Sequence record: SRR31156797_927 | Length of the DNA: 35,221 bases | Strand: one strand, 5' to 3' | Part shown: piece by piece, positions 1,205 to 30,757 of the stretch | Numbering within the stretch: the stretch's first letter is position 1 | Layout: the number at the start of each line of letters is the position of its first letter | Program-made: the position numbers and the translations under genes | The notes under the pieces: generated by a model | Databases searched by the model: none | The model's input: only the letters and a program-made list of their open reading frames with translations | Told to the model about the DNA's origin: nothing

Positions 1205-2233
1205 TTAATTTTGCTTATCGTTGTAGATGGAAGTTTCCGCCAGATATGTCTGAAGGATTTGTACCGCTTTGGCTGAAAGTTCGCTGCGTTCGGCCACTTT
1301 TTTCCACATGGGACGGGTCGCCTCCTTAAACTTGGCGAACTCGGCGTCCGAAAGGCTGGATACTTTCACCTTCTTGGTATCGAGCCCTTCCTGATCCCAT
1401 TTCTTGTTGAGCTTGGCGGTCCACCGCATGGTGTTCAGGGCGGCCCGGGTCACCGCTTCCTGCATCTCCTTGGAAAGTCCCTTCCATGTTTTCATGTTCA
1501 TGGTGAGATCGATCACGCAGGGTGAATAGACCCCGGGCATGACCATGTAATCGATAACCTCATACAGTTTGTAGGCTTCCACGGTATACCAGGGATAAAT
1601 GGTTCCCTCAATGGTGCCCCTCTGTAAGGAAGTGTACTGCTCCGCCGCGGAAAGGGATACCGGGGTGCCTCCCAGGAGTTTAATGGTGGTGGCCTGGGGC
1701 CCGGCCCCTCTTATCTTTTTACCTTTAAAGTCGCTCATCTTGGTGACGGGGAATTTCGTGAGAAAACCGAGGGTTCCCATGGGGATGGGGACGAGATAAC
1801 GCACGCCGTGCCGGGCCAGTGCTTCCTGCATCAACTCAAGGAGGCCGTGGTTCAGAAACAGATCTTCCACCTGCTCAGGCGAATTCCAGCTAAAGGGAAG
1901 CCACTCCCAACTGGCTTCTTTGACGACCCCTCCATAGTATAGAAGGGCGGAATACATTCCGTCCACCATCCCCTTTTGCATGGCGGAAAACGCTTCTTTT
2001 GTTTTGAGTATCTGGCCTGCGTAGAAAAGTTGTACTTTGAGTTGCCCTCCGCTTTCTTTATTTACCTGGTCGGCGAAATACACCATGCTTCCGGCGCCAT
2101 GGCTGGCGCCGGTATAGTTTACTTGAAAGCGGAGGGTCCTTTCCGCCCTCGCCGGGCTGCTCCCAATACAAAACATAAATGCCAGAATCAATCCCGCCAA
2201 AAACCATCTCTTGCCAGTCAAATTGCTTCCCAT
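1205..2233 (-). CDS. dctP: TRAP transporter substrate-binding protein
   Basis: Signal peptide (ARA|E); ESGGQLKVQLFYAGQ; DFKGKKIRG with the conserved carboxylate-binding Arg; EQYTSLQRGTIEG. Confidence 0.93.
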   Translation of the reverse strand: MGSNLTGKRWFLAGLILAFMFCIGSSPARAERTLRFQVNYTGASHGAGSMVYFADQVNKESGGQLKVQLFYAGQILKTKEAFSAMQKGMVDGMYSALLYYGGVVKEASWEWLPFSWNSPEQVEDLFLNHGLLELMQEALARHGVRYLVPIPMGTLGFLTKFPVTKMSDFKGKKIRGAGPQATTIKLLGGTPVSLSAAEQYTSLQRGTIEGTIYPWYTVEAYKLYEVIDYMVMPGVYSPCVIDLTMNMKTWKGLSKEMQEAVTRAALNTMRWTAKLNKKWDQEGLDTKKVKVSSLSDAEFAKFKEATRPMWKKVAERSELSAKAVQILQTYLAETSIYNDKQN

Positions 2234-2287: not shown

Positions 2288-2421
2288 ATAGTAAATGATA
2301 TTGTGAAAAAAATGTCAAGATGATTTTACAATTTTTAATAAAATTGTTAACAATAATATTTTAAAAATACTTGACAGGCACATTTATCATGAATTAGATT
2401 GTTTTCAAAATCGTAAACAAT
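2288..2421. promoter_or_regulatory. Divergent sigma70-type promoters with candidate GntR operators
   Basis: Plus strand: TTGACA 2371-2376, 18 nt, TAGATT 2395-2400. Minus strand: TTGACA 2318-2313 and TACTAT 2293-2288 (19-nt spacer, weaker). Perfect palindrome ATTGTTAACAAT 2343-2354; related ATTGTTTTCAAA 2398-2409 and ATCGTAAACAAT 2410-2421. Confidence 0.65.
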
Positions 2422-2457: not shown

Positions 2458-2895
2458 ATGAGCCATAGGAATCCTGAACTGGTTTTTGAAGATTTGAAGA
2501 AAGGCCGCATCTTCCGGCCCATGAAATTCACTATCAATCGCGACCGTGTAGAGGACTACATGGAAACCGTGGGTGATTATAATCCCTTATATGGAGATAC
2601 GGCCGGCGCGGAATATGCGGGTAGTTCCATTGCCCCTCCAGGATTGGCCGCGGTCTTTGCCCGGCTCTCCTATCTCCAGGACAACACCATGCCTTCGGGT
2701 GGAATTCTGGCGAAGCAAGAGTTCGAGTTTCGTTCTCCCGCGCAGGTAGGCGACGTGCTCACGGTCCAGGCCCGGGTCTTTGACAGCTACCTGGATGAAA
2801 AAGGACGTAGGAGGGTCAATTTCCTCATACAAGCCGTGAATCAGGACCAAAAAGAGATCTGTCTGATCCGTCTTTTCGCCATCTGGCCCAAGTAG
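2458..2895 (+). CDS. MaoC/hotdog dehydratase subunit, probably non-catalytic (HadA-like)
   Basis: GDYNPLY...IAPPG (catalytic His replaced by Tyr); QEFEFRSPAQVGD. Confidence 0.8.
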   Translation: MSHRNPELVFEDLKKGRIFRPMKFTINRDRVEDYMETVGDYNPLYGDTAGAEYAGSSIAPPGLAAVFARLSYLQDNTMPSGGILAKQEFEFRSPAQVGDVLTVQARVFDSYLDEKGRRRVNFLIQAVNQDQKEICLIRLFAIWPK

Positions 2896-3330
2896 ATGAA
2901 AAGGAGTGTGAAAATGAGATTAAAAATCGGCGAAAAACTGCCGTCCGTGACCAAGGATATTGACCAGGAAAGAATCATGGGCTGGGCCAGGCTGTCCGGA
3001 GATTTTAACCGGCTGCACGTGGATCCGGAATATGCCCGGGAAACGCCTTTTAAGGGAACCATCGCCCATGGACCCATGTCTCTGGCCTTTTTAAATGAAC
3101 TGATGATGAATTGCTTCGGTCAGGGCTGGGTCAATGGGGGCCGGCTTCTGGACGTGCGTTTCCTTTCCCCTATCCAGCCCGGTGATCGAATCATCATAGG
3201 TGGTGAGGTAAAGGACCTTCAGCGTGAAGGGAACGTCGGCTGGGTTGAGTGCAGCCTGTCCGTCACCAAGGCCGATGATCGGATTGCCGTATCCGGACGG
3301 GCCATGGTTCCCCTTAAGGAGGATGAATGA
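2896..3330 (+). CDS. MaoC-family (R)-specific enoyl-CoA hydratase, catalytic subunit (start may be 2914)
   Basis: SGDFNRLHVDPEYA..TPFKGTIAHG hydratase-2 motif with Asp/His dyad; RFLSPIQPGD. Confidence 0.9.
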   Translation: MKRSVKMRLKIGEKLPSVTKDIDQERIMGWARLSGDFNRLHVDPEYARETPFKGTIAHGPMSLAFLNELMMNCFGQGWVNGGRLLDVRFLSPIQPGDRIIIGGEVKDLQREGNVGWVECSLSVTKADDRIAVSGRAMVPLKEDE

Positions 3331-4601
3331 TGAACGGGTCACATTTGTCCCGGAAAGTTACCGCGGCGGAGGCCATTGGCGCTTTGAAACCGGGTTGGAG
3401 GGTCTCCCTCCCTTTGTGTTGCGGTCTGCCCCAAAGTCTGGTGGAGGCATTGGTGATGGACGCGGACCGGCTCAAAAAAATGGAAATGGTCAGCGGCCTG
3501 CAGATCGTTTACCCCTTTCTGGCGGACGGCCTTGAGGAGTCCTTCACCTTTCGGACCTGGCAGTGCGCCCCGGCCATCCGCCAACACCTGGAAACCGGAA
3601 GGGTAAAGTATATTCCCATGCGTCAGGGTGACGCGGTCCGGGTCTTCGGACCCCGGGGACCGTGGCCCGTGGATGCGGTCCTGATTCAGGTTTCACCCCC
3701 GGATTCCGAGGGGCGGTGCAGCCTGGGAACCTCCATCGGCCACTCATTGCCGTTGGCCCTGGAAGCGAAGCTGGTGATTGCCGAGGTAAATGAGCGCATG
3801 CCACGGGTGCTGGGTCAGGGATTTATCCATCTGTCTCAGATCGATTTCCTGGTGGAATCGGATCGGGGGCTTCCGGAATTTCCTTCCGGGGGAGAGCCCG
3901 GCGAAAAGGAACGCACCATCGGCCGTCTGGCCGCGGGGCTGATCCCCGACGGGGCCACGGTTCAGATCGGTCTGGGCGCCATCCCCGAGGCAATCATGGA
4001 CCAGCTTGCCCATAAACGGGACCTGGCATTTTATGCCATGGGAATCGACAAAATGGTCGATTTGGTGGAGGCGGGAGCGGTAAGGCGGGATTCCGGCCCG
4101 GCCATCATGGTTACCGAGATTTTGGGAAGCCGAAAGATTTTCGATTTTGTTCACGAAAACCCCCTGGTGGAGGGCCGCCCATTGCCCGAGATGATTAATT
4201 CCAGGATGGCGGGACGTATCCCCCGCTTCTGTTCGGTACTCTCCGCCCTGGAGGTGGATCTCACGGGCCAGGTCAATGCGGAGACCATCCGGGGCAAGCA
4301 GTTGAGCGCGGTGGGAGGCAGCTTTGATTTTTTACAGGGGGCGCTCTTCTCCCAAGAAGGCGTGGCCATTATTGCCCTGCCTTCCACCACCCCCGGAGAT
4401 AAGATTTCCCGCATTGCGGTCCGGCTATCGGCCGGTTCGGCGGTGACCACCCCACGACATTCGGTGCAATACGTGGTCACCGAGTATGGGGTTGCGGAAT
4501 TGTGGGGCCGCTCCATGGGTGAGCGGGCCTTGGCCCTTTCACGGGTGGCTCACCCTGCCTTTCGCGAAGAACTGGAGCGGGAAGCGGCCCGGTTCGGGTA
4601 A
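3327..4601 (+). CDS. Acetyl-CoA hydrolase/4-hydroxybutyrate CoA-transferase family protein (atypical active site)
   Basis: QVSPPD..G.CSLG; IAEVNERMP; IPDGATVQIGLGAIP; LEVDLTGQVNAE; VTTPRHSVQYVVTEYGVAEL. Overlaps the upstream stop (ATGA). Confidence 0.9.
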   Translation: MMNGSHLSRKVTAAEAIGALKPGWRVSLPLCCGLPQSLVEALVMDADRLKKMEMVSGLQIVYPFLADGLEESFTFRTWQCAPAIRQHLETGRVKYIPMRQGDAVRVFGPRGPWPVDAVLIQVSPPDSEGRCSLGTSIGHSLPLALEAKLVIAEVNERMPRVLGQGFIHLSQIDFLVESDRGLPEFPSGGEPGEKERTIGRLAAGLIPDGATVQIGLGAIPEAIMDQLAHKRDLAFYAMGIDKMVDLVEAGAVRRDSGPAIMVTEILGSRKIFDFVHENPLVEGRPLPEMINSRMAGRIPRFCSVLSALEVDLTGQVNAETIRGKQLSAVGGSFDFLQGALFSQEGVAIIALPSTTPGDKISRIAVRLSAGSAVTTPRHSVQYVVTEYGVAELWGRSMGERALALSRVAHPAFREELEREAARFG

Positions 4602-4673
4602 AATCATCGGCCCGCATGGGTCTCCGGCAAAATGTATGAAAGGTTTGACTCCTTCATGAGAAAGGAGAATTCC

Positions 4674-6194
4674 ATGATATCGGTTACGCTGCCCCATTTA
4701 TTGCGCCGATGTGCCGCCAAATTCTCCGGCAAGGAGGCCATTGTCAGCCGGGAAGGGCGATGGACCTTTGGCCAGTGGGACAAAAATTCCAATAAAAGGG
4801 CAAACGTGCTGGCATCCTTGGGAGTGAAAAAGGGCGATCACGTGGCCACCCTGTTCCTGAACGGCAGGGATGTTCTGGAGACCTATTTCGCCCTGTTGAA
4901 GCTGGGCGCTGTTTTGGTCCCCTTGAACGTGCGTATGACGCCGTCGGAGCATGAAAACCTGATCATCCATGCCCGGGCGAAGTATGTCATCTACGGACCG
5001 CAATTCAAGGGTGTGACACAGAAGATAAAAGATAGCCTGCCGCAAGTGGCGGCATGGATCGGATGCGAGGGGGCCGGTGGGCCTGCGCCGGATCTTAACC
5101 GGCTCATGGATCAACAAAATGATCATGATCCCATGGTGGCGGTGGCGGAGGAAGACATGGCCTGCATCCTCTATACCGCCGGGACCACCGGTAAACCCAA
5201 GGGCGTCATGCTTTCCCACCGTAACTGCTTGTGGGCAGCCATCAACCTGGCACAGGACAGTACATTCTCCGGACATTTCCGCGTGCTTTTGGTCTTCCCC
5301 CTTTTCCATTCCGCGGCCTTCAGCCTTGTTAACGTCAGTCTTTATCTGGGTTGTACGCTGGTGTGCATGGAAGAATTCAATCCGAAAGCGGTGATGGATC
5401 TGGTCGCCCATGAGCGGGTCAGCAAGATGGCCTTCCCACCCACGGTCTGGAATTTCATTTTGCAGCTTCCGGATTTGGACCGATACGATACCTCGTCGGT
5501 GGAATCCATATCATCCGGCGCAGAAGTGATGCCTCTCGAGACGAAAAATAGGCTTATGGCGATATTTCCCGGGGCCAAACTGGGCGAGACCTACGGTATG
5601 ACCGAAACCGTGGCGGCCATAACCACCCTCAAGCCCGAATATGTCACGAAAAAGGCCGGGTCCGTGGGTCTGGCATTCACCAATATGGAAATCCGCGTGG
5701 TAAATGAGCGGGACCGGGATGTGCCCCGGGGCGAGGTGGGTGAGGTTCTGGTCCGGGGTCCGAACGTGATGCAGGGATATTTCCGGGATTCCGCGGAAAC
5801 GGCACTTTCTCTCCGGGGCGGGTGGCTCCACACGGGAGACCTGGGCCGCCTTGACAAAGAAGGCTTCCTCTATCTGGTTGATCGCAAAAAGGAAATGATC
5901 ATATCAGGTGGTGAAAATATTTATCCCAGGGAAGTTGAGGAAGTGCTGTACACCCATCCGCATATCTCTGAAGCTGCTGTTTTGGGATTGGCCGATCCCA
6001 TTTGGGGCGAACGGGTGCATGGGGTGGTAAGCCTCAAACCGGGGCGCCTTCTCACGGAGGCGGAAGTGATCGCCTTTTGCGGGAAGCGCCTGGCCGGATT
6101 CAAAAAAACCAAGTCCGTGGCGTTTGTGGACAAGCTGCCCAGGTCGCCGGCGGGCAAGGTCCTCAAGCGTTTGCTCCGGGATAAAGGCGAATAG
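4674..6194 (+). CDS. Acyl-CoA synthetase (class I adenylate-forming)
   Basis: AAGGAG RBS before ATG 4674; YTAGTTGKPKG, YGMTE, GWLHTGDLG, DRKKEMIISGGENIYP, GKVLK. Confidence 0.93.
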   Translation: MISVTLPHLLRRCAAKFSGKEAIVSREGRWTFGQWDKNSNKRANVLASLGVKKGDHVATLFLNGRDVLETYFALLKLGAVLVPLNVRMTPSEHENLIIHARAKYVIYGPQFKGVTQKIKDSLPQVAAWIGCEGAGGPAPDLNRLMDQQNDHDPMVAVAEEDMACILYTAGTTGKPKGVMLSHRNCLWAAINLAQDSTFSGHFRVLLVFPLFHSAAFSLVNVSLYLGCTLVCMEEFNPKAVMDLVAHERVSKMAFPPTVWNFILQLPDLDRYDTSSVESISSGAEVMPLETKNRLMAIFPGAKLGETYGMTETVAAITTLKPEYVTKKAGSVGLAFTNMEIRVVNERDRDVPRGEVGEVLVRGPNVMQGYFRDSAETALSLRGGWLHTGDLGRLDKEGFLYLVDRKKEMIISGGENIYPREVEEVLYTHPHISEAAVLGLADPIWGERVHGVVSLKPGRLLTEAEVIAFCGKRLAGFKKTKSVAFVDKLPRSPAGKVLKRLLRDKGE

Positions 6195-6378
6195 GGCCTT
6201 ATGAGAAACCGGTTTCGCTTTTAAGAGATGTGAAACGGACGGCGGACAACGACAACATCATCGCGCACGGGGAAGGGGGTGATTCCATAAAAAATAAATG
6301 AATCATACGCTCAAGAACCGGCGCCGGTATGGGAAAAACTTCAGTTTACAACCTTCATCTTGAAAAGGGAGAGGAAAC

Positions 6379-7398
6379 ATGAAAATGACCCGATTTGTTG
6401 TATGTGCATTCCTGGCTTTGATGGTTCCATTCGCCGTCCTGAATATTTCAAAAGACGCAATTGCAGAGGATAAATCGATTCGAACTCTGAAATTGGCAAC
6501 TCTTTACTCTGAAGGGAAGGAGCTTTTTAAGACCGTACAGTTTTTTGCCGATGAAGCGGAGAAAAGAACCCAAGGTAGAATTAAATTCAAAATTTTCCCG
6601 GGCAATTCCCTGGTCCCTTCCAAACAGGCCCTGTCGGGTGTTCACAGGGGAGTGGTGGATGCGGCATTTGTTCCGGCTGCCTATGAACAGCAACTATGGC
6701 CCATAACAGCCATGACCATGACCTTTGGGGCCCCGAATCTCACCTATGAAAATTGGCGGAAGATCCACGATCCCATCAGAGACATTATGAACCGGAGCCT
6801 GAACATCAACGTGGTGATCCTCGGCATGCCCCATGTGCTCAATTATTTTTTCTATGCAAAGAAACCCGTCACGGGCACTTTGAAAGACTTCAATAATACC
6901 CTCGTGAGAAGCGCCGGCGGGGCCTACGATCCCTCTTTCAAGGCGCTGGGATGCGCGCCCGTGAAGATACCGGCGCCCGAGGTTTATATGGCCTTACAAA
7001 AGGGGACCATCGATAGCGGATGGAATATTTACAGCCGGTATGTGGAGGGAAAATTGTACGAGGTCGTACCCAATGTGGTGGTGATCCCCAAAGGAATGGT
7101 TATCAGCGGACAACACTTTATTATCAATAAGAAGATATGGGAAAGTCTGCCCCCTGATATCCAAAAGATCTTACTCCAGGTGGGAACGGACGTTGTCGCC
7201 TTCACCAACGACAACTCCGCAGCGTCGGATAAAAAAGTCCTGGAAGAGATTCTTCCCGAAATGGGAATCAAACCCATCGTCATGAGCGAAGCGGAAAACA
7301 AACGCCTGATTGGTCGCCTCATGCCGGTATGGGGTCCGGTCAAGGAAAGATTGGGGAAACCGGGTGCGCAGATCGCGGAAATTCTCGGGGTGAAGTAG
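6379..7398 (+). CDS. dctP: TRAP transporter substrate-binding protein
   Basis: Signal peptide; RTQGRIKFKIFPGNSL; LVRSAG (Arg); EVYMALQKGTIDS; followed by dctQM. Confidence 0.92.
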   Translation: MKMTRFVVCAFLALMVPFAVLNISKDAIAEDKSIRTLKLATLYSEGKELFKTVQFFADEAEKRTQGRIKFKIFPGNSLVPSKQALSGVHRGVVDAAFVPAAYEQQLWPITAMTMTFGAPNLTYENWRKIHDPIRDIMNRSLNINVVILGMPHVLNYFFYAKKPVTGTLKDFNNTLVRSAGGAYDPSFKALGCAPVKIPAPEVYMALQKGTIDSGWNIYSRYVEGKLYEVVPNVVVIPKGMVISGQHFIINKKIWESLPPDIQKILLQVGTDVVAFTNDNSAASDKKVLEEILPEMGIKPIVMSEAENKRLIGRLMPVWGPVKERLGKPGAQIAEILGVK

Positions 7399-7420
7399 AT
7401 TGATCCAAGGAGATAATCCT

Positions 7421-7909
7421 ATGTTGTTGCGATTGATCACACGTGTAAACTTCATGGTGGATTGTCTTACCGCAGTCTCCTTTGTAATCATCACCGCCGG
7501 GGTGCTCATTGCGGTTTTCGGGCGATATCTTTTCCGATGCCCCGTACCGTCAGCCATGGAAGCTGCTTACTACGCCATGTTGTGTTGTGCCTTTTTGCAG
7601 ACCGGAAAGGCGCTTTTTGAGGGAAAACATGTGGCCATGTCTTTTTTATTGGACCGGGTGTCGGGAAAATCAAAGGCGGTCCTCGGCATTGTGGTCAATG
7701 TCATCATTTTGATAACGGCCCTGTTCATGAGTTGGTATGCAGCTTCCTTTAGCTGGGAGTCTTTTCTTTTCAAATGGTGCGCTTCCGGCTCGCTACCCGT
7801 TCCCCTGTTTTGCCTTTATGGAATTATGGCTTTCGGCACGGTTTACCTCGGTTTTATCGCCGTATTTAAAATGATTGAATATGGGAAACAGATCAGGAAG
7901 GGAAATTAA
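7421..7909 (+). CDS. dctQ: TRAP transporter small permease
   Basis: AAGGAG RBS before ATG 7421; four hydrophobic segments; VFGRYLF and GKHVAM motifs. Confidence 0.9.
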   Translation: MLLRLITRVNFMVDCLTAVSFVIITAGVLIAVFGRYLFRCPVPSAMEAAYYAMLCCAFLQTGKALFEGKHVAMSFLLDRVSGKSKAVLGIVVNVIILITALFMSWYAASFSWESFLFKWCASGSLPVPLFCLYGIMAFGTVYLGFIAVFKMIEYGKQIRKGN

Positions 7910-9214
7910 ATGGAATCCAGCTATATCCCTGCAATGATAATGAGCGGTATGCTTCTGATGCTGCTGGTCATGGGTGTGCCCATTTCTTTCGTCCTGACCT
8001 TTCTCGGCATCTTTGCCTGTTTTGTATGGATCGGAGCCGGATCTATTCTTCAGATCGTGCAGACTTTCTTCGGCACTTGCTCATCGGAAATTCTGCTGTG
8101 TCTACCGCTTTTTTTGTTGATGGCGGAGATCGTTGTGGTGGCGGACATCGGTAAAGACCTTTTCAACGCCATCAAGCTCTGGATGGGTCGGCTAAAAGGG
8201 GGTGTGGCCGGAGCCACGCTCATCGGTTGCGGCCTTTTTGCCGCGGTAAGCGGTTCCAGTACGGCTACCATTGCCGCAGTCGGTACCATAGCCCTGATTG
8301 AAATGTTGCGTTTGGGGTATAGAAAAGACTTCGCCAGCGGCACGGTGGGCGTGGGGGGCACCTTGGGGGTCATGATACCGCCGAGCATCATCATGATTTT
8401 ATACGGGGCACTTACCGATCAGTCCATCGGAAAACTGTTCATCGCCGGTGTGGTACCCGGGATTATGTTGGCAATGGGGTATGTGGGATTCGCCATTTTC
8501 CGGGCTTATCACAACCCCCTGCTGGCCCCGGTCCCCCTTGAAAAAATCCCGCTCCAGGAAAAACTTCGCGCTTCCCGATCCGTTATCCCTTTTTTCATTA
8601 TTTTTGTCGCCATGTTCTGGGCATTTTACACGGGTGTGGCCACCCCCACGGAAGTGGCCGCCGTAGGGGTTCTGGCGTCTCTGATCATCAGCGTCGGGAT
8701 GGGAAGATTGAACCTGTCGGCCCTGTTTAAGGCAACCGGCAGGGCCGGTGCAACCACCGCCTTTGTTCTGTTTATTATTGCCGGAGCCAAGTTTTTCACC
8801 TTTACGGTTTCCGCCACCGGCGTTACCCGTTTACTGACCGAGAGCATTATCAGTCTTGGCTTGTCCCAGTTTCAACTCGTCCTGCTGATGATGCTGATCT
8901 ATTTGATGATGGGATGTTTTATTGATCCGGCAGGTATGCTCACCCTTACAATTCCGTTTTTTCTACCTGTCCTGGTGGCAGCAAATGTGGATCTGATCTG
9001 GTTCGGTATCCTTGCCACGGTCAATTCGGAATTGGGGTACTGCACGCCGCCATTCGGGTTTAATCTGTTTGTGCTGAAAGGCGTGGCACCGCCGGAGGTG
9101 AGTATCCAGAATATTATCAAGGGTGTATTACCCTTTATTGTGGTCGATTTCATATTACTTATTCTTATTTTGTTTTTTCCTCAAATTGTGCTCTGGCTTC
9201 CATCACACATGTAG
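7910..9214 (+). CDS. dctM: TRAP transporter large permease
   Basis: GVPISF; FAAVSGSSTA; GGTLGVMIPPSI..ILYG; TPTE; TPPFG.NLFV. Confidence 0.95.
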   Translation: MESSYIPAMIMSGMLLMLLVMGVPISFVLTFLGIFACFVWIGAGSILQIVQTFFGTCSSEILLCLPLFLLMAEIVVVADIGKDLFNAIKLWMGRLKGGVAGATLIGCGLFAAVSGSSTATIAAVGTIALIEMLRLGYRKDFASGTVGVGGTLGVMIPPSIIMILYGALTDQSIGKLFIAGVVPGIMLAMGYVGFAIFRAYHNPLLAPVPLEKIPLQEKLRASRSVIPFFIIFVAMFWAFYTGVATPTEVAAVGVLASLIISVGMGRLNLSALFKATGRAGATTAFVLFIIAGAKFFTFTVSATGVTRLLTESIISLGLSQFQLVLLMMLIYLMMGCFIDPAGMLTLTIPFFLPVLVAANVDLIWFGILATVNSELGYCTPPFGFNLFVLKGVAPPEVSIQNIIKGVLPFIVVDFILLILILFFPQIVLWLPSHM

Positions 9215-9323
9215 TTGGTGTGGCGGTTCATGGAGAGGGTCATGGGGGGATTTATGATGTTCTGTTTGTTGCGGATAGTTGAATTTTGAAAATGTAAACC
9301 CTTTATTAAAAGAAGAAGGATGA

Positions 9324-10358
9324 ATGGAAATGATTCTACCAGGCAAAGTGACATTGTCGGACCTGACGGTCCGGGACGGCTTCCAGAGTGAAAAACGCGT
9401 TATCCCGACCGATGCGAAACTCTATATCATTAACGGTCTTGTGGATGCGGGCTTCAGGGAAATGGAGGTGGCAGCTTTTGCGCCTCCCCGGTATCAACCC
9501 CAATTCAGGGATTGGGAAGAAGTGCTGAAGGGGCTGCCCGATCGGGATGATGTGACCTATTCCTGCGTGACCACGGGCAAAAAAGCAACTCAAAGGGCTC
9601 TGCTGGCAAGGGAAAAGGGATATCGTGTGGACAGGATTCTACTGGGGATTCTTCCTGCCAGTGAAAAACTTAACAAGATCGTTCTTGGATTAAATTACGA
9701 AGAAACCTGGCAATGGATCGCTGAAACCGTGAGGATTGCCCACCAACTGGATATGAAAGTAAACGTTTTTTTAACGGGCATCTTCAGCCCCCCTGATCCG
9801 GAAGAGAAACGGGTGGACCTCATGGAACGTGCTTTGGCGTTTGTGGACAAACTCCTGGACATCGGCGTGGATGATATCGAGCATCCCGACCATCTGGGGG
9901 AATCGTGCCCGGAGCGGGTTTATGCTTATTTTACCCGTGTTCTCGAAAAGCATCCGGATCCCAATCTGCACGTCTTCCACATTCATGACGCGAGAGGGTT
10001 GGGTCTTGCATGCTATTTTGCGGCACTGCAGGCCGGCATTACCCGCTTCGAGACGACCATGGGGGGGCTTGGAGGATGGCCCGCAAACTTTGTGGACGAC
10101 GTCCCCGTGCCGGGCTTAATCGGCTTGACCGAGGTCTCCCGGCGCCCCGGTCTTGTTTCCACGGAAGATTTTCTGGTCATGCTGGACGGGATGGGAATTG
10201 AATCGGGAATCGATCTGGATAAGGTCATGGTGCTCGGAAGAATGGTCGAACAGATTGTCGGGCGTGAACTCTGGAGTTTTACACAGGGGACGGGTATGAG
10301 CCGTCCCGGAGCGGGACGTATTCCCGAAATACAAGAATATAAGAAGGAACAAAGGTAA
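9324..10358 (+). CDS. HMG-CoA lyase-like DRE-TIM metallolyase (substrate uncertain)
   Basis: DLTVRDGFQ; EMEV; HIHDARGLG (HxH); GGLGGWP; VSTED; GIESGIDLDK. Confidence 0.88.
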   Translation: MEMILPGKVTLSDLTVRDGFQSEKRVIPTDAKLYIINGLVDAGFREMEVAAFAPPRYQPQFRDWEEVLKGLPDRDDVTYSCVTTGKKATQRALLAREKGYRVDRILLGILPASEKLNKIVLGLNYEETWQWIAETVRIAHQLDMKVNVFLTGIFSPPDPEEKRVDLMERALAFVDKLLDIGVDDIEHPDHLGESCPERVYAYFTRVLEKHPDPNLHVFHIHDARGLGLACYFAALQAGITRFETTMGGLGGWPANFVDDVPVPGLIGLTEVSRRPGLVSTEDFLVMLDGMGIESGIDLDKVMVLGRMVEQIVGRELWSFTQGTGMSRPGAGRIPEIQEYKKEQR

Positions 10359-10362
10359 TATT

Positions 10363-12021
10363 ATGAGTGTGGAAAAGATAAGGAAAAACCAGGAAAAATG
10401 GGAAGCCGAACACCAATTGGAGCGGCTTCCCACCGCAAAAAGCGATATGGGGGAAGCGTTAAAGGTCGTGTACACCCCGGCCGATGTCGATCATGTGGAC
10501 TATCTAAAGGATATCGGCTATCCCGGCGAGTACCCTTACACCCGGGGCGTTTATCCCGGAATGTACCGAAAAAGACCCTGGCAAATGCGTCTCTATTCCG
10601 GGTTCGGCACGGCGGAAGACACCAATAAGCGGTGGAAATTCCTTCTGGAGAGGGGGAATAACGGTGTGGCCGTCGCCTTTGACCTCCCTACCCAGATGGG
10701 TATCAATTCCGACCATCCCCATGCGGAGGATGAGGTGGGGAGGTTGGGCGTGGCCATTGACACGCTTCGGGATATGGAAATCCTGTATGCGGATCTGCCT
10801 CTGGAAAAACTGGTCTCCTCCTTTAACATCAATGCGCCGGCAGCCATTATCCTCGCCATGTATATTGCCATGGGAGAGAAACAGGGCGTGCCTTTGGAAA
10901 GACTCGCAGGAACCATTTCAAATGATATCCTTTGCGAATATGTTTCTCGCGGCATGTGGGTATTCCCCCCATCCCCCGCCCTCCGATTGGTGGGCGATCT
11001 TGCGGAATATTGCGCCAAACACCTGACCAAATTCTATCCCTTCAACATCAGGGGGATCATCATGAGGGAAGCCGGCGCCGACATGATACAGGAAGCGGCC
11101 TTTGCATTTTCAAACGCCCTGGCCTATATCCAGGAAATCACTTCCCGGGGGCTTAACGTGGACGATTTTGCCCCTCGCATCTCTTTCTTTTTTGCAACGG
11201 GACTTCAGATATTTGAAGAGGCGGCACGATACCGGGCGGCCAGAAAACTGTGGGCGAAAATCATGAGAGAAAGGCTCCGTGCCAAAGATCCGAAATCCAT
11301 GCTGTTTCGCTTCACCGGTACAACGGGCGGTAGTTATTACCGGCCCAGGGAACCGCGGAACAATCTGGTTCGAGGCGCTTACGGGCTGCTGGGAAATATC
11401 CTGGGCGGCGCACAGGGCATGCTCCATCCCGCGTGGGATGAACCCTTTGCCATTCCCACGGAGGAATCATCCACCCTGGCCTTGAGAACCCAGCAGATAC
11501 TCGCTTACGAGACCGGCATTACAAAGGTTGCGGACCCCCTGGGAGGGTCCTACTTTGTTGAGGCATTGACAAAGGCATATGAAGGCCGAATTGAAGAAAT
11601 TATGCAAAAAATCGATGAGATGGGAGGAGCGGTAAGGGCCATCGAAGAGGGTTATATGCAAAAGGAAATCGCCGGCGAAGCATACCGCGTTATGAAAGAG
11701 GAGAAATCCGGCGAACGCGTCATCGTGGGCATGAACAAGTTCGTCACGGAAAATGAAAAATCGGAAAAGCATGAAATGGTATTCCATGAGGCGGATCCCC
11801 TCACCCGCCAACGGCAGATGGAACGTCTTGATCGGGTGAGGGAAGAACGGGACAATGTCGCCGTGAGGGACTGCCTCGCCGAACTCAAGGAGAAAGCAAA
11901 GGGTAAGGAAAATCTAATGCCTCACTTGGTGAAGGCCGTAAAGGCATACGCCTCCATAGAGGAAATCATGGAGACCCTCAAGGATGTCTTCGGCACATTT
12001 CGAGAACCCATTAACATATAG
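10363..12021 (+). CDS. Coenzyme B12-dependent acyl-CoA mutase, large substrate-binding subunit (MCM family, divergent specificity)
   Basis: PGEYPYTRG.YP.MY..RPW.MRLYSGF; AFDLPTQMG; NDIL; FAPRISFFF; ALRTQQILAYETG; DPLGGSYFVE. Confidence 0.95.
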   Translation: MSVEKIRKNQEKWEAEHQLERLPTAKSDMGEALKVVYTPADVDHVDYLKDIGYPGEYPYTRGVYPGMYRKRPWQMRLYSGFGTAEDTNKRWKFLLERGNNGVAVAFDLPTQMGINSDHPHAEDEVGRLGVAIDTLRDMEILYADLPLEKLVSSFNINAPAAIILAMYIAMGEKQGVPLERLAGTISNDILCEYVSRGMWVFPPSPALRLVGDLAEYCAKHLTKFYPFNIRGIIMREAGADMIQEAAFAFSNALAYIQEITSRGLNVDDFAPRISFFFATGLQIFEEAARYRAARKLWAKIMRERLRAKDPKSMLFRFTGTTGGSYYRPREPRNNLVRGAYGLLGNILGGAQGMLHPAWDEPFAIPTEESSTLALRTQQILAYETGITKVADPLGGSYFVEALTKAYEGRIEEIMQKIDEMGGAVRAIEEGYMQKEIAGEAYRVMKEEKSGERVIVGMNKFVTENEKSEKHEMVFHEADPLTRQRQMERLDRVREERDNVAVRDCLAELKEKAKGKENLMPHLVKAVKAYASIEEIMETLKDVFGTFREPINI

Positions 12022-12034
12022 GACGGTTAAAAGC

Positions 12035-12451
12035 ATGAATGGAAAAAGAAAGATGAGGGTGTTGGTGGCAAAAGCGGGGCTTGATGGGCATGACAGGGGC
12101 GCCAAAGCCGTTGCCCGGCTTCTGAAGGATGCCGGCATGGAAGTGATTTACGCCGGACTTCATCAAACCCCGGAACAGATTGTCAATGTGGCCATACAGG
12201 AAGATGTGGACGTCATCGGGGTCAGCATCTTATCGGGAGCCCATATGGGGATCTCACGGAAAATCCTGGGGAATCTTCAGAAAAAAAGGGCGAAAAACAT
12301 CGAATACATTGTGGGGGGGATTATCATTGACCGGGATGTTCGGAAACTGAAGGAAATGGGCGTGGCGGAGGTCTTTCCCATGGGTTCGGATATAGATGAT
12401 ATCGTAGCGTTTTTTGAAAAACATAATCACCCATCATTATGTGAAGGATAA
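12035..12451 (+). CDS. Acyl-CoA mutase small subunit (cobalamin-binding)
   Basis: RVLVAKAGLDGHDRGAK (DxHxxG); AIQEDVDVIGVSILSGAH; VGGII. Confidence 0.95.
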   Translation: MNGKRKMRVLVAKAGLDGHDRGAKAVARLLKDAGMEVIYAGLHQTPEQIVNVAIQEDVDVIGVSILSGAHMGISRKILGNLQKKRAKNIEYIVGGIIIDRDVRKLKEMGVAEVFPMGSDIDDIVAFFEKHNHPSLCEG

Positions 12452-12455
12452 TATT

Positions 12456-13595
12456 ATGAGGGATCTGTTCCTGACGGAAGCGCACATGATTTTCCGGGAT
12501 CAAATTCGACGTTTTTGCGAATTTGAAATTGCCCCCCTGGTGCAGGAGGCTGAAGAGACGGAAACTTTCCCAGTATCCCTATTCCCCAAGATGGGGGAAT
12601 TAGGTTATCTGGCTGTTCGTTACCCTGAAACATATGGTGGCGCCGGCGCAGACAAATTAACGGATGTGATCCTCCGTCAGGAAATGTCACGGATTTGTCA
12701 GGGCATTGCCAGCAGTTGGTCATCCCATTCCCATTTGGCCACCTTTCCAATCTATCACGCCGGGACGGAAGACCAAAAGGAAAGGTATCTGGTTCCCGCC
12801 ATTAAAGGGGATAAAATCGGCGGTTTTGCACTTACGGAACCGAATGCCGGTTCGGATACAAGGTCGATTGAGAGCTTCGCAAAAAGGGATGGTGACCATT
12901 ACACCTTGAATGGCTCGAAGACCTTTATATCCAATGCCCCCATCGGCGATTTTCTGACAACCGTGGCTTATACGGATAAAACCAAAGGATACAACGGCAT
13001 CAGCATTTTCATTGTCGATTGCCATACCCCGGGCATGAGCATTACGAAATTAAAGAAAGAGGGGATCCGGTCCTCGGAGACGGGCGAAGTTTCATTTGTG
13101 GATTGTGTTATACCCGTTGCGAACCTGCTGGGTCATAAAGAAGGCAATTACAGCCTGGTTATGGAAACCCTTTCCGAAGGCAGAATCGGTGTATCCGGAA
13201 ATATGCTGGGTGTGGCCCAGGCGGCATTGGAAGCAGCCGTAAAATACGTCAAAGAACGTATCCAGTTTGGTAGGCCCATCGGCAAATTCCAGGCAATTTC
13301 TCACAAGGTGGCGGAAATGGCGACCCAAATTCAGGCGGCGCAACTCATGGTTTACTCAGCCGCTAAGAAAATGGACATGGGGATCGCCTCCACGTTTGAT
13401 GCATCCGCCACCAAGCTTTTTACCTCGGAAGTGGCCGTGAAGGTGGCCCGGGAAACCATTCAAATCTTCGGTGGCTATGGATTCATGCGGGAATATCCGG
13501 TTTTTCGATATTTGAGGGATGCATTGGTCTATACGGTTGGAGAGGGCACTTCCGAAATCCAAAAAAATATCATTGCAAAAGAACTGGGCCTTTGA
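12456..13595 (+). CDS. Acyl-CoA dehydrogenase (catalytic Glu at MCAD-type position)
   Basis: ALTEPNAGSD; LNGSKTFISN; RIQFGRPIGKFQ; QIFGGYG; VGEGTSEIQ. Confidence 0.95.
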   Translation: MRDLFLTEAHMIFRDQIRRFCEFEIAPLVQEAEETETFPVSLFPKMGELGYLAVRYPETYGGAGADKLTDVILRQEMSRICQGIASSWSSHSHLATFPIYHAGTEDQKERYLVPAIKGDKIGGFALTEPNAGSDTRSIESFAKRDGDHYTLNGSKTFISNAPIGDFLTTVAYTDKTKGYNGISIFIVDCHTPGMSITKLKKEGIRSSETGEVSFVDCVIPVANLLGHKEGNYSLVMETLSEGRIGVSGNMLGVAQAALEAAVKYVKERIQFGRPIGKFQAISHKVAEMATQIQAAQLMVYSAAKKMDMGIASTFDASATKLFTSEVAVKVARETIQIFGGYGFMREYPVFRYLRDALVYTVGEGTSEIQKNIIAKELGL

Positions 13596-13659
13596 CACAT
13601 GAACATGCCGGCCTAACCATAAGGACCCATTTTGCTCACATTATCGCGGGAGAGATCCT

Positions 13660-15228
13660 ATGCTGATCGGTGACATCCTTTCCATGAGCGCATACCGTTT
13701 TCCTGACAAAGTGGCGCTCATTACACGGGAAGCTCGCTTGACTTACAAAGAGCTTGAAGCGAATGCCAATAGAATGGCACGTGTTCTTCTGAAACTTGGC
13801 GTAAAAAGGGGAGACCGGGTTGGAATAATAGATAAAACCTGCGGTTCATGCATCGAAACGGCTTTGGCTGTCATCAAAACAGGCGGCATACTGGTCAACA
13901 TTAACAACCTTCTGGGTCACGAAGAACTGCTCGGGGTCATTGAGGACTGTGATCCGGCGGTTTTAATTTTTGGAAATGAATATGAAACGCTGATTCGAGG
14001 CATTAGGGATGTTTCTCCGGGTATCCGACATTATCTCTCCATGGGAAGCTGTGGGTGGACTGTTTCGTTGAAAAGAGAGGCCGCATGCGAACCGGCCGAC
14101 AGCCCCGGTGTTGATATTAAGGAGAACGATGCGTTCATGATTTTGTATACCGCTGGGACCACGGGGGAACCCAAGGGGGCCGTTTATACGCATGGGGCTT
14201 TTTGGGAAAATCTCCTCATGACGGTCATCGATACCTACCAACAGACCTATGGAGACATATGGATCGGTCCCGTACCCATGTACCATATCGGCGGCTTTGG
14301 TACATTAATGCGTATTCTTTTAATGGCAAACACCTTTATATTGAAAAGTAAATTTGATCCGTCGGATTATCTTCTGACCATTGAAAAGGAGAAAGTCACC
14401 ATACTCTATGCCTATCCCACCATGATCAACGCCATGATTCAAACTCCGGAAGCGGATGCGTGTGATCTTTCTTCACTGAAATTGCTCATCTATGGGGGAT
14501 CTCCCATCCCTGAAGCCACTTTAAAGAGCGCTTATGAATTGTTCCGATGTGATTTTCTCCAGAGATACGGCGCCACTGAATGCTGCGGTTCGGCTATTTT
14601 AATCCTTGCGCCGGAAATGCATCGATCGGTTTTGTCGGGGGACGAAATCCATAAAAAGAAATTACAATCGGCGGGCAAACCGTGCCTGGGGGTTAAGGTA
14701 AAACTCATGGCAAAAAATGGTGAGGAGGTAACCGATCCGGGCAAACCCGGAATCTTGCTGGCTCAATTACAAGGGCCGATGAAAGGATACTGGCGGGCGC
14801 CCGGAAAAACAGCCGCGGCCTTTAAAAATGGTTGGCTCTGTTTGGGAGATATCGCAAAATTTGATCAAGACGGGTTCTTTTATCTCGTTGACAGGGCCAA
14901 AGACATGATCGTTAGCGGGGCACGCAATATTTATCCCAGGGAGGTGGAAGAAGTCCTGTACTCCCACCCCGCTGTTAAAGAGGCATGCGTCGTCGGTGTT
15001 CCGGACGACTACTGGGGAGAAGCGGTGAAAGCGGTGGTTGCGTTAAGGCACGACATTAAGGCTACGGAACAAGAACTGATCGCGTATTGCGGTCAGCGTT
15101 TGGCCGGCTATAAGAAGCCTAAAAGCGTTGATTTCGTTGCGTCATTGGCCAAGAATGCCGGGGGGAAAATCGATAAAAAAGAGCTAAGACGGAAGTATTG
15201 GCGAGGAAAGGATAGACTTGTTCATTAA
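13660..15228 (+). CDS. Acyl-CoA synthetase (class I adenylate-forming)
   Basis: YTAGTTGEPKG; YGATE; GWLCLGDIA; DRAKDMIVSGARNIYP; GKIDK. Confidence 0.93.
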   Translation: MLIGDILSMSAYRFPDKVALITREARLTYKELEANANRMARVLLKLGVKRGDRVGIIDKTCGSCIETALAVIKTGGILVNINNLLGHEELLGVIEDCDPAVLIFGNEYETLIRGIRDVSPGIRHYLSMGSCGWTVSLKREAACEPADSPGVDIKENDAFMILYTAGTTGEPKGAVYTHGAFWENLLMTVIDTYQQTYGDIWIGPVPMYHIGGFGTLMRILLMANTFILKSKFDPSDYLLTIEKEKVTILYAYPTMINAMIQTPEADACDLSSLKLLIYGGSPIPEATLKSAYELFRCDFLQRYGATECCGSAILILAPEMHRSVLSGDEIHKKKLQSAGKPCLGVKVKLMAKNGEEVTDPGKPGILLAQLQGPMKGYWRAPGKTAAAFKNGWLCLGDIAKFDQDGFFYLVDRAKDMIVSGARNIYPREVEEVLYSHPAVKEACVVGVPDDYWGEAVKAVVALRHDIKATEQELIAYCGQRLAGYKKPKSVDFVASLAKNAGGKIDKKELRRKYWRGKDRLVH

Positions 15229-15245
15229 CGGCGGGGGAGGACAAA

Positions 15246-15770
15246 ATGGCTGTCTACAGATACGGAAAACATGCGCCTGTAATCGGCGGGGAATGTTATA
15301 TCAGCGATTCGGCAAGAGTCATCGGGAATGTCATTTTGGAAGATTGCTGTTATGTTGGACATGGGGCCGTTATCCGCGCTGATCATGGGACGATCCATAT
15401 CGGACGGGGCTCGGCAATTGAAGAAAATGTTGTAATACATGTCCGTTCCGGGCAGACGTACATTCTGGAAGAACAGGTAACCCTGGGGCATGGGGCCATT
15501 ATCCATGGGGATTTAATAAAGGCTTTTGCCGTTATCGGTATGGGGGCTGTTGTGGGCCGGGAAACCACGGTGGGCAAATGGGCCGTGGTGGCCGAGGGTG
15601 CCGTCGTTCCCAGGGGACAAATAATCGAGGATGAAACCATCGTTGCGGGAGTCCCCGCAAAGGTGATTTCTCAAGTCACATGGAAACATAAAGAATATTG
15701 GGTATGGGCTAAACAAGTCTATGAAGATTTTGCGCGTGATTACGAAAAGGAGCTGGTCAGATTGTACTGA
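15246..15770 (+). CDS. Gamma carbonic anhydrase family protein (PaaY/CaiE/YrdA-like)
   Basis: Hexapeptide repeats; VIRAD; IEENVVIH; VTLGHGAIIHG (three His ligands); AGVPAKV. Confidence 0.9.
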   Translation: MAVYRYGKHAPVIGGECYISDSARVIGNVILEDCCYVGHGAVIRADHGTIHIGRGSAIEENVVIHVRSGQTYILEEQVTLGHGAIIHGDLIKAFAVIGMGAVVGRETTVGKWAVVAEGAVVPRGQIIEDETIVAGVPAKVISQVTWKHKEYWVWAKQVYEDFARDYEKELVRLY

Positions 15771-16149: not shown

Positions 16150-16794
16150 GTGGGCATAGCGGAGAGGAGAGAGCGTGAGCGTGATCTTCAGCAAAAGATG
16201 CGCCGCGGGCAGATCCTGGATGCCGCGAAACGGCTCTTTTATGCAAAAGGATTCAGCTCCGCAACCATGGAGGATATTGCTCAAGAGGCGGAATTAAGCC
16301 CGGCTGCATTATATCTCTATTTCAAAAATAAAGACGATCTCTATGTTTCCCTCAACCTTCAGCTTTTAGAGTACCTCTCTGATAAACTGGAAAGGCTTTT
16401 TCTGCAGGAAAGCCTTGATGCGGAAGAAAAGGTTGAAGCCTTAAAAGGCCTCTTTTACGATGTCTACAATTTCGACCCGCTGATTCTCATAAACCTGTTT
16501 CACCTCCAGGCCAGCGATGGCCTCAAAAACCTGCCTCCCCACCGGCTTTCCCAGTTAAATGAATTGGCAGGCAAGAGCCTCAGAAGCCTTGCCGCCATAT
16601 TTGATCAGGGAAAGGGGGAAGGGCGTTACATGGACTACCATTCCACCGCCCTCGCCGACATTGTCTGGATCATCTTTACGGGTGCGGTTCTATGGGAGGA
16701 GAGCAAACGGATGACAAACCCCCGTAAGGATTATCTGAAAGGCACCCTGGATCTTGCAATCGATATTTTGAAACGGGGCATAAGGAAGGGATAA
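16150..16794 (+). CDS. TetR/AcrR-family transcriptional regulator
   Basis: ILDAAKRLFYAKGFSSATMEDIAQEAELSPAALYLYFKNKDDL; GTG start with RBS. Confidence 0.95.
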   Translation: MGIAERRERERDLQQKMRRGQILDAAKRLFYAKGFSSATMEDIAQEAELSPAALYLYFKNKDDLYVSLNLQLLEYLSDKLERLFLQESLDAEEKVEALKGLFYDVYNFDPLILINLFHLQASDGLKNLPPHRLSQLNELAGKSLRSLAAIFDQGKGEGRYMDYHSTALADIVWIIFTGAVLWEESKRMTNPRKDYLKGTLDLAIDILKRGIRKG

Positions 16795-16857
16795 CATTCA
16801 TAACAACCGGATCATACAAAAGGATTAGTAAAAAACACGGAGGTTAACCATTAGTAA

Positions 16858-17685: not shown

Positions 17686-17721
17686 CCGGACCCCATGTGT
17701 CCCGGATCAAGGAGAAACAAA

Positions 17722-18561: not shown

Positions 18562-18621
18562 AGGCGCCTTTAGCGCAAGCTTTTTTGGGCTGATGTTGCA
18601 ACCAAAAAGGAGGGGAATCAA

Positions 18622-19767: not shown

Positions 19768-19795
19768 CCTTTGGTAGTGGGAGGGGGGAGAAAAC

Positions 19796-21244: not shown

Positions 21245-21298
21245 TCCTGGGCTACGAACCCCGGACCACCCGGAGTGTGTTGAGAGGAGGACGCAATA

Positions 21299-23480: not shown

Positions 23481-23486
23481 CAAAAT

Positions 23487-30747: not shown

Positions 30748-30757
30748 AATATTGCCC

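Follow-up and report, generated by a model that had tools for sequence, protein, structure and literature searches.

A conserved gene set pairing a variant B12-dependent acyl-CoA mutase with a CoA-transferase that lacks its catalytic glutamate, and its possible role in dicarboxylate catabolism

The 35,221-nt stretch of sequence record SRR31156797_927 analysed here (the window) carries at positions 2458-15770 one unbroken plus-strand gene run, which extends from a pair of MaoC-type hydratase genes to a gene for a hexapeptide-repeat protein and includes both subunits of a coenzyme-B12-dependent acyl-CoA mutase and a family-I CoA-transferase. The stable core of this set consists of the two MaoC genes (MaoC_A and MaoC_B), the transferase and the mutase; a lyase, an acyl-CoA dehydrogenase (ACAD) and a GntR-family regulator are usual companions, and transporters and ligases are variable. 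The module recurs in sulfate-reducer-type bacteria and is conserved and uncharacterised. Judged by enzyme family, active-site residues and synteny, the run is, on balance, probably an uncharacterised catabolic operon for an imported, possibly substituted, dicarboxylate.

Gene calls in the window rest on an open reading frame (ORF) listing and on Pfam and NCBIfam profile scans (Table 1). Within the run, neighbouring genes abut or overlap, and intergenic distances are 0-184 bp. A preliminary description had read the run as a B12-dependent skeleton rearrangement followed by dehydrogenation, hydration and aldol cleavage. The profile scans bear out its TRAP (tripartite ATP-independent periplasmic) transporter, two CoA ligases, mutase, ACAD, MaoC pair and gene for a homologue of 3-hydroxy-3-methylglutaryl-CoA (HMG-CoA) lyase, with their positions and plus-strand orientation. 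Its inventory overlooked the hexapeptide protein and the CoA-transferase, although no gene is linked to the mutase more tightly than the latter. For the mutase small subunit, the internal ATG at 12038 appears a likelier start than 11984; the orthologue in the closest genome locus has 131 aa and begins after the large subunit. For the dehydrogenase (ACAD1), the ATG at 12456 agrees with orthologue lengths.

The mutase belongs to the coenzyme-B12 acyl-CoA mutase superfamily by its PF01642 and PF02310 domains, its TIGR00641 score (603 against a cutoff of 304) and the DxHxxG motif, present as DGHDRG at residue 34 of the small-subunit ORF. Among solved structures, HcmA (4r3u; E 2e-157 over residues 17-548) is the closest, ahead of the human and bacterial methylmalonyl-CoA mutases (MCM). 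Residue roles in the active sites of MCM, 2-hydroxyisobutyryl-CoA mutase (HCM) and isobutyryl-CoA mutase (ICM) are described in the structural literature. MCM numbering was checked on chain 1e1c_A, where the index plus one gives the usual number; this entry, which we take to be the H244A mutant, has Ala at 244, consistent with that assignment. The carboxylate-binding Tyr89 and Arg207 of MCM are kept in the window (as Tyr78 and Arg196), as is Glu370 (Glu360). The remaining positions are substituted: Gln197 by Ser186, Lys202 by Cys191, Tyr243 by Ile232, His244 by Ile233, His328 by Thr318, Gln330 by Thr320, Trp334 by Ser324 and Asn366 by Pro356. Across 121 aligned mutase sequences (63-100% identity), the Tyr and Arg, Cys191, Thr318 and Ser324 are invariant, position 232 is Ile or Val, and position 233 is Ile, Leu or Val. 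Because both carboxylate-binding residues are kept, a dicarboxyl-CoA substrate is plausible, and the widened, more hydrophobic pocket suggests an extra substituent on it.

Assignment to HCM, to ICM and, as taken up below, to MCM was rejected. HCM membership fails despite the best structural match: Ile90 is Tyr, Asp117 is Ala and the Gln at the Arg207 site is Arg, all three invariant in the 121 sequences. We take Ile90 and Asp117 of HcmA to be the HCM specificity residues, with Asp117 binding the hydroxyl group. ICM and IcmF have Phe at the Tyr89 site and Gln at the Arg207 site; in the window Tyr and Arg are present, and the IcmF equivalog score is 260 against a cutoff of 1500. Ethylmalonyl-CoA mutase (ECM) keeps the Tyr/Arg pair, with small residues at 328 and 330. 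Compared with that description, the window mutase has Thr/Thr at these sites but has lost Tyr243 and His244, and it matches no NCBIfam ECM model.

Paralogues place these substitutions in context. In related genomes the nearest ones, of 45-49% identity, have canonical Tyr-His and His-x-Gln signatures, canonical MCM-type paralogues coexist with the variant in mutase-carrying genomes (for example, L011 in G001), and a sister mutase type (Val-Phe, Thr-x-Ala) sits in a ligase, mutase and ACAD unit. Among 1.84 billion representatives clustered at 50% identity, the clade corresponds to one (62% identity, 792 bits), the next scoring 594 bits. In an arbitrarily rooted FastTree phylogeny of the 128 best full-length representatives, the window mutase groups with P0130 (0.99) and then with P0131 (0.995), inside a 23-member group (support 0.997), none of whose members keeps His328 and Gln330 jointly. 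Nearly every one of these 128 representatives (P0130-P0279) has its own residue combination at 13 active-site positions, and by manual count only about a dozen carry the full canonical MCM pattern. In our reading, carboxylate-binding mutases have radiated and their pockets have been remodelled; the window clade would be one unnamed branch of this radiation, unusual in its loss of His244. Most of the substrate range of the acyl-CoA mutase family looks unexplored. An unusually large paralogue set occurs in the genome of locus L002 (G002): in this single 6.8-Mb metagenome-assembled genome (MAG), the mutase large subunit has 18 separate matches at E <= 1e-50.

The best structural matches of the CoA-transferase are 4-hydroxybutyrate CoA-transferases (E 3e-83 to 6e-79). 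When aligned to one of these, AbfT (3gk7), its sequence has a gap, preceded by Ala, at the catalytic Glu238. All 17 transferase orthologues read F-[YFW]-[AG]-M-G at this site, and none has a Glu there. An intermolecular enzyme of the family-I (Cat1) type was therefore rejected: the Pfam domains are present, but the Glu that forms the acyl-enzyme anhydride is absent from 17 of 17. There is a precedent in ThnP, reported to be a family-I Cat1 transferase that has Gly at the catalytic Glu site and acts on a dicarboxylic CoA ester, moving CoA solely within the molecule (PMC11659651). By that published description, the window transferase and ThnP share the loss of the Glu, and transferase paralogues of 41-47% identity from the same phylum, which read H-S-G-M, are ThnP-like. 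IaaL is reported to have the same CoA-shifting role ahead of the IaaGH mutase (PMC8360864). The window transferase is thus probably a CoA-position isomerase, to go by its active-site motif, and the ligases are then the likely activating enzymes.

A separate locus, L048 (G393:C24, 6886-11060), has a Glu-to-Gly, ThnP-like transferase (HSGM) encoded divergently beside another variant mutase and its small subunit. In that mutase Tyr243 is replaced by Thr, His328 by Thr and Gln330 by Ala, and His244 is kept. Here, independently of the window's set, a Glu-less transferase and a variant mutase are paired a second time.

Recurrence was scored in 18 loci with mutase orthologues of at least 62% identity, including the window; for the others, the surroundings were fetched from genomes. 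The best 120 clusters of mutase relatives are 63-89% identical, most of them unnamed or labelled 'methylmalonyl-CoA mutase', and come from Desulfobacterota-type MAGs and one Bathyarchaeia MAG. The closest genome locus, L001 of a Desulfatiglandales MAG, has the same twelve genes in another order and a mutase of 81% identity. The transferase adjoins the mutase and is the most constant partner (Table 1). Because five of the 18 loci are contigs shorter than 5.5 kb, many gene absences are contig ends; among the 13 loci with at least 1.5 kb of sequence beyond MaoC_A, 11 have an HMGL-like lyase gene by our reading of the locus maps. Since the same partners recur, reshuffled, in the 18 loci, the association exceeds chance, and the difference in gene order between the window and other loci argues for selection on the set and not for inheritance of one arrangement. 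Recurrence of the mutase with the lyase, ACAD and MaoC pair, which the preliminary description had put forward as a check on its proposal, was thus found.

In an even sample of 401 genomes from the phylum of L001, 12 have a mutase orthologue (E <= 1e-200), as do 5 of 201 genomes sampled from its order. The reciprocal search found transferase orthologues (at least 59% identity, one of them partial) in 13 of the 401, and the two genome sets share 11. The window-type lyase (at least 72% identity) occurs in only four of the 401, three of them mutase carriers, and lies on another contig in two of the four. As a strict pathway marker it was rejected, the copies in G274 and G216 lying on other contigs beside EtfAB or unrelated genes. 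The copy in L040 (G274:C95, 3859-8409) stands beside EtfA/EtfB and a membrane oxidoreductase (CCG/4Fe-4S/cytochrome-c7-like) that is a likely electron outlet for ACADs.

ACAD1 (379-393 aa) has Bcd (5ol2) as best structural match (E 2e-102); Desulfococcus glutaryl-CoA dehydrogenase (GDH; 3mpi) scores 243 bits. In all nine orthologues the residue before the catalytic Glu is Gly, and helix E contains a conserved S-W-S-x-H-S-H-L stretch. In ThnO, a Gly at that position reportedly shapes the pocket for a C3-(beta-)branched substrate, and smaller residues occur there for alpha-substituted substrates (PMC11659651). Two dicarboxyl-CoA dehydrogenases were considered and rejected. Published work describes a helix-E Arg that binds the distal carboxylate in GDH, and an N-terminal extension of ~170 aa together with a three-Arg carboxylate cluster in the methylsuccinyl-CoA dehydrogenase Mcd (PMC5798300). 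For GDH, the NF045552 score is 320 (cutoff 470) and the position of the helix-E Arg is Ala, by a hand alignment to a GDH helix-E stretch, which is less certain than a structural alignment. For (2S)-methylsuccinyl-CoA dehydrogenase, ACAD1 has no N-terminal extension, and the match to the 551-residue chain 6es9 is weak (194 bits).

Hydratase-2 enzymes are recognised by a motif with catalytic Asp and His. MaoC_B keeps both residues (SGDFNRLH); in MaoC_A (GDYNPLY) the His is replaced by Tyr. From their adjacency, the two subunits probably form a heterodimer. Both proteins are far from solved hydratases, and the structural relatives of MaoC_B are only distant (E 5e-10 or weaker).

HMG-CoA lyase has a catalytic Cys266 and the metal ligands Asp42, His233, His235 and Asn275. 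Relative to the human enzyme, the window lyase keeps Arg41, Asp42, Glu72, His233 and His235 and has insertions of 7 and 9 residues after the G-loop. Membership in the HMG-CoA lyases proper was rejected (PRK05692 score 163, cutoff 246; Cys266 and Asn275 replaced), and an ESM Atlas search with the lyase returned only generic 'HMG-CoA lyase' clusters. A 428-aa lyase replaces the window type in seven of the 11 lyase-bearing loci and carries a ~120-residue C-terminal extension without a Pfam match (L025, 6560-6913; homologues in L028-L032), hot-dog-like to the eye. Of the 401 genomes, 76 were matched at E <= 1e-60, 72 of them through a broader family of HMGL-like paralogues that are 40-49% identical to the window lyase. 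The four members examined (L042-L045) have Gln at the Cys266 site and a similar insertion, and three lie near ACAD and crotonase genes. Loss of Cys266 is therefore a trait of a broad, uncharacterised lineage in anaerobes and is not unique to this operon.

A pathway can be proposed from these assignments. A dicarboxylate would be taken up by the TRAP system and ligated at the cost of ATP to a mono-CoA ester by one of the two ligases, after which the Glu-less transferase would move CoA between the carboxyl groups, for which ThnP, IaaL and Mct are precedents. The mutase would then catalyse an adenosylcobalamin-dependent 1,2-shift of the thioester carbon, the free carboxylate being held by Tyr and Arg. 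Alpha,beta-dehydrogenation by the Bcd-like ACAD1 and (R)-specific hydration by the MaoC heterodimer would give a non-oxidisable alcohol, from which the HMGL-like lyase would release an oxo compound together with acetyl-CoA or some other short acyl-CoA. The interpretation given in the preliminary description is partly supported: Tyr89 and Arg207 are kept, ACAD1 has the Gly-Glu, and the sequence of dehydrogenation, hydration to a tertiary alcohol and lyase cleavage has a characterised precedent in the thn pathway (PMC11659651, PMC13689101). The description's inclusion of the ligases and the TRAP system is upheld for the run itself; across the 18 loci they occur in only 3-6 and are accessory.

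The simplest substrate family that would use all five conserved enzymes is a C5 branch, running from ethylmalonyl- or glutaryl-CoA through methylsuccinyl-CoA, mesaconyl-C1-CoA, mesaconyl-C4-CoA and citramalyl-CoA to pyruvate and acetyl-CoA; as the actual route we consider it unlikely. Bulkier analogues, including alicyclic ones in the style of thn, fit equally well, and routes from dimethylmalonyl- or 2,2-dimethylsuccinyl-CoA are chemically possible. The wider, more hydrophobic mutase pocket, like the context of locus L027, leans to a bulkier substituent; the Bcd-like ACAD leans to a short chain. More tentatively than the operon assignment, we suggest that the His244-less mutase, obligatorily paired with the Glu-less transferase and acting with the MaoC hydratase and Cys-less lyase, might serve strict anaerobes to dismantle dicarboxylates blocked for beta-oxidation. 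Candidate substrates would be, for example, gem-dimethyl-, alkyl- and cycloalkyl-substituted succinates and glutarates and naphthenic-type acids with a tertiary or quaternary carbon.

Several observations weigh against a dicarboxylate pathway of this form. The order of the steps from CoA transfer to hydration is provisional, and the steps are deduced from sequence. His244 matters for catalysis in MCM, and a mutase without it may perform a chemistry different from a simple thioester shift. ACAD1 has neither the helix-E carboxylate-binding Arg nor the N-terminal extension of Mcd, which leaves a dicarboxyl substrate at the dehydrogenation step unsupported. In the lyase, Cys266 is Trp (window type) or Gln (428-aa type), and Asn275, kept in the 428-aa type, is Leu in the window type. 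Among the loci with ample flanks, L027 has neither lyase nor ACAD1, with hydantoinase A/B, an Old Yellow Enzyme (OYE)-type reductase, FadL, crotonase and a ligase in their place; L037 has no lyase within its contig; L029 and L030 have no small subunit beside the large subunit; and L038, a minimal lyase, MaoC, transferase and mutase unit between unrelated genes, has no ACAD1. Finally, the promoter scan gave 18 matches, not above chance (15.4 +/- 4.3 in shuffles).

Other explanations draw on part of the same evidence. That the mutase is an ordinary MCM of propionate or succinate metabolism, its neighbours belonging to unrelated pathways, is suggested by the public names of its relatives, by the kept Tyr89 and Arg207 and by the family-I CoA-transferases that accompany Sbm-type mutases in E. 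coli. MCM membership was nevertheless rejected: the NF006944 equivalog score is 494 against a cutoff of 876, and six of eight active-site residues (Tyr243, His244, Gln197, His328, Gln330 and Asn366) are replaced clade-wide. Paralogues with the canonical signature are present in the same genomes, and the variant co-occurs tightly and specifically with the Glu-less transferase and MaoC pair, so that we regard an ordinary MCM as very improbable. Alternatively, the mutase could act after hydration, on a hydroxy-dicarboxyl-CoA, with CoA shift and lyase cleavage following. Examples would be 3-hydroxyglutaryl-CoA to citramalyl-C1-CoA, a carboxylated analogue of the HCM reaction, or 2-hydroxyglutaryl-C5-CoA to beta-methylmalyl-CoA. 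Such an order would suit the invariant core of MaoC pair, transferase and mutase, from which ACAD is separable (it is missing from the otherwise complete L038), and HcmA as the closest solved structure. It is quite improbable given that Asp117, the presumed hydroxyl binder, is Ala in 121 of 121 clade members, that Ile90 is Tyr, and that 11 of 18 loci nevertheless have ACAD1.

The gene set also invites comparison with the degradation of indoleacetate and alkylsuccinates. A substituted succinate (aryl-, alkyl- or cycloalkyl-) would have its CoA set by the transferase and be converted by the mutase to a substituted malonyl-CoA; the ACAD would dehydrogenate with decarboxylation, and hydratase and lyase would shorten the enoyl-CoA. 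For indoleacetate degradation such a transferase, mutase and ACAD trio is described, IaaL, IaaGH and IaaF (PMC8360864). In 17 of 18 loci the transferase is the immediate neighbour of the mutase, the mutase pocket is enlarged and hydrophobic (Ile-Ile, Thr/Gly/Thr), and the FadL, OYE-type reductase and hydantoinase A/B of L027 suggest a hydrophobic or cyclic precursor. Set against this, ACAD1 is Bcd-like without the helix-E Arg (IaaF is GDH-like), the core has no decarboxylase or carboxyltransferase, and an ordinary beta-oxidation set would suffice after decarboxylation, yet the lyase is kept in 11 of the 13 loci with enough upstream context. We judge this route improbable, and continue to favour catabolism of an imported dicarboxylate through CoA shift, rearrangement, hydration and lyase cleavage.

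Table 1. Features of the window and occurrence of the run's genes in the 18 mutase loci
Feature	Position	Strand	Evidence	Loci with gene (of 18)
GntR-family regulator with FCD domain	417-1109	-	Pfam GntR + FCD	10 (at least 35% identity)
Second DctP-type TRAP solute-binding protein, encoded divergently to the run	1205-2233	-	PF03480, E 1.5e-47	
Weak cluster of sigma-70-like promoter matches 5' of first gene	2303-2400	+	Four matches, top 10/12 at 2371-2400	
MaoC_A, hot-dog subunit without catalytic His	2458-2895	+	PF13452; motif GDYNPLY	14
MaoC_B, catalytic (R)-hydratase subunit	2896-3330	+	PF01575, E 1.7e-20; motif GDFNRLH	16
Family-I (Cat1/4-hydroxybutyrate type) CoA-transferase without catalytic Glu	3327-4601	+	PF13336 + PF02550	17; adjoins mutase
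AMP-forming acyl-CoA ligase 1	4632-6194	+	PF00501 + PF13193	4 (at least 55% identity)
TRAP transporter: DctP 6379-7398, DctQ 7400-7909, DctM 7910-9214	6379-9214	+	PF03480, PF04290, PF06808	6 (DctM-type)
HMGL-like (DRE-TIM) lyase, divergent member of its family	9324-10358	+	PF00682	11 (4 window type, 7 428-aa paralogue)
Acyl-CoA mutase large subunit	10363-12021	+	PF01642, E 2e-177	
B12-binding mutase small subunit	12038-12451 (ORF opens 11984)	+	PF02310; TIGR00640 146 against cutoff 57	11
Short-chain-type acyl-CoA dehydrogenase ACAD1	12456-13595 (ORF opens TTG 12414)	+	Three ACAD Pfam domains	11
AMP-forming acyl-CoA ligase 2	13660-15228	+	PF00501 + PF13193	4
Hexapeptide-repeat protein (gamma-carbonic-anhydrase/PaaY/CaiE-like)	15246-15770	+	PF00132; all NCBIfam matches below cutoff	3, all among the four with ligase 2
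Short-chain dehydrogenase/reductase (SDR), MFE-2-type hydratase, second ACAD, thiolase-like/DUF35 fusion, SCPx-type thiolase	16858-22495	+	Pfam	

Transport and activation vary between loci, and the ligases and TRAP system are accessory. The window's TRAP system comprises adjacent DctP, DctQ and DctM genes; this set recurs in L001 and L032, a TAXI-type TRAP substitutes in two of the 18 loci (L026 and L030), and orthologues of the second DctP (64-65% identity) stand beside the cluster in L028 and L032. The binding proteins give no clue to the ligand because their structural relatives, isethionate-, lactate- and unnamed-ligand proteins, are only distant (E 1e-21 to 1e-36). The GntR/FCD protein is a likely pathway regulator. 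No terminator-like sites were found in the intergenic gaps of the run, with counts near those in shuffles, and Rfam gave 0 matches at gathering score in the window, hence no cobalamin riboswitch.

The preliminary description had also noted the absence of a 3-hydroxyacyl-CoA dehydrogenase and a thiolase. This holds inside the run, where the Pfam and NCBIfam scans found neither; directly downstream it does not, and L026 carries Hbd and a crotonase. About 1 kb 3' of the run on the plus strand, past a TetR gene (16150-16794), lies a dehydrogenase/thiolase module, in which the second ACAD has the motif YAGT with Ala at the usual catalytic Glu site and the thiolase-like protein is fused to ChsH2-type zinc-ribbon/OB (DUF35) domains. 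The TetR-led module (16150-22495) resembles steroid or branched side-chain aldolase/thiolase sets. Among the 16858-22495 genes, none has a counterpart of at least 40% identity in the nine other clustered loci; the module was therefore treated as separate and rejected as part of the pathway. Farther downstream (22611-29169), the genes of a LIV-type ABC transporter (two permeases, two ATPases and a Peripla_BP_6 binding protein) enclose one for a 610-aa AMP-binding enzyme, together likely an uptake and activation unit for another organic acid. The genes at 29464-35220 are regulatory and encode a PAS/HisKA_3 kinase with a LuxR-type response regulator, one Usp and one GAF protein, a receiver domain standing alone and, cut off by the window end, a PrkA-like AAA kinase.

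A literature search of about 8.1 million PMC papers and of bioRxiv, with subscription journals and supplements outside its reach, found no description of the mutase clade, the gene set or the hypothetical reactions. Within that coverage, no paper combined acyl-CoA mutase, HMG-CoA lyase, MaoC and sulfate-reducing or contained at least five of six enzyme and transporter names searched together; glutaryl-CoA, methylsuccinyl-CoA, methylglutaryl-CoA and adipyl-CoA mutases and dimethylsuccinyl-CoA had no mention, dimethylmalonyl-CoA was mentioned in unrelated contexts only, and no survey of acyl-CoA mutase diversity was found. To our knowledge, few substrate specificities of acyl-CoA mutases are characterised. 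They comprise methylmalonyl-, isobutyryl-, ethylmalonyl-, 2-hydroxyisobutyryl-, pivalyl- and phenylsuccinyl-CoA, and each has led to new biochemistry and given access to branched building blocks. The conserved, distinctive active site and the conserved partner enzymes make the clade testable in vitro. If the proposed catabolic role is true, it would account for the handling of beta-oxidation-resistant dicarboxylates by sulfate-reducer-type anaerobes, and the recently described Glu-less, intramolecular type of family-I CoA-transferase would gain a second example. Should the tentative assignment to beta-oxidation-blocked dicarboxylates also be true, it would add a substrate class to the short list for acyl-CoA mutases and could point to a variant mechanism without the His general acid.

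So, how does the run compare with known systems? The same sequence of reaction types results when the middle of the ethylmalonyl-CoA pathway (Ecm, Mcd, Mch and Mcl1) is joined to the Mct-Meh-lyase section of the Chloroflexus 3-hydroxypropionate bi-cycle: B12 mutase on a carboxylated acyl-CoA, ACAD, intramolecular CoA shift, MaoC-type hydratase and C-C lyase. No window enzyme looks orthologous, however. The mutase has its own signature, the hydratase is probably a two-gene heterodimer, the transferase is of family I and not III, the lyase is HMGL-type and not CitE-type, and ACAD1 (393 aa) is Bcd-like without the Mcd extension. Mcd and Mct are described in PMC5798300 and PMC11659651.

The itaconate degradation trio Ict/RipA, Ich/RipB and Ccl/RipC similarly combines a family-I, 4-hydroxybutyrate-type transferase, a MaoC hydratase and a lyase on a C5 dicarboxylate, but it has neither mutase nor ACAD, and its lyase is CitE-type. 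The window transferase matches PDB 3qli ('Coenzyme A transferase'), which we take to be RipA, at 189 bits. HcmA (4r3u) shares the split large- and small-subunit architecture of the mutase but keeps the Tyr-His and His-x-Gln that the window clade has lost, and the HMG-CoA lyases (human 2cw6, B. subtilis 1ydo) share the DRE-TIM fold family with the window lyase.

Parallels also lie in the thn and iaa pathways. The thn pathway is reported to have a Cat1 family-I transferase without catalytic Glu that acts on a dicarboxylic CoA ester and an ACAD with Gly-Glu (PMC11659651), and, after hydration to a tertiary alcohol, a proposed lyase, with two small adjacent MaoC-like genes, ThnH and ThnI (PMC11659651, PMC13689101). 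It differs in that its active hydratase is a crotonase, and neither a mutase nor B12 is mentioned for thn in the available text of these two papers. By comparison with the ThnP description only, the window transferase has Ala/Gly and a one-residue gap where ThnP has Gly. The iaa pathway, as published, shares the CoA-position shift, a B12 mutase acting on substituted succinyl/malonyl-CoA, and the subsequent ACAD; by the same description it is set apart by a family III transferase (IaaL), a decarboxylating ACAD (IaaF) and the rest of the iaa cluster, which the window does not contain (PMC8360864). The design is a variant of known schemes, namely the ethylmalonyl-CoA, iaa and thn lower pathways, and its new part would be the specificity of the mutase, the combination of that enzyme with a family-I transferase lacking the Glu, and an HMGL-type lyase in the cleavage role.

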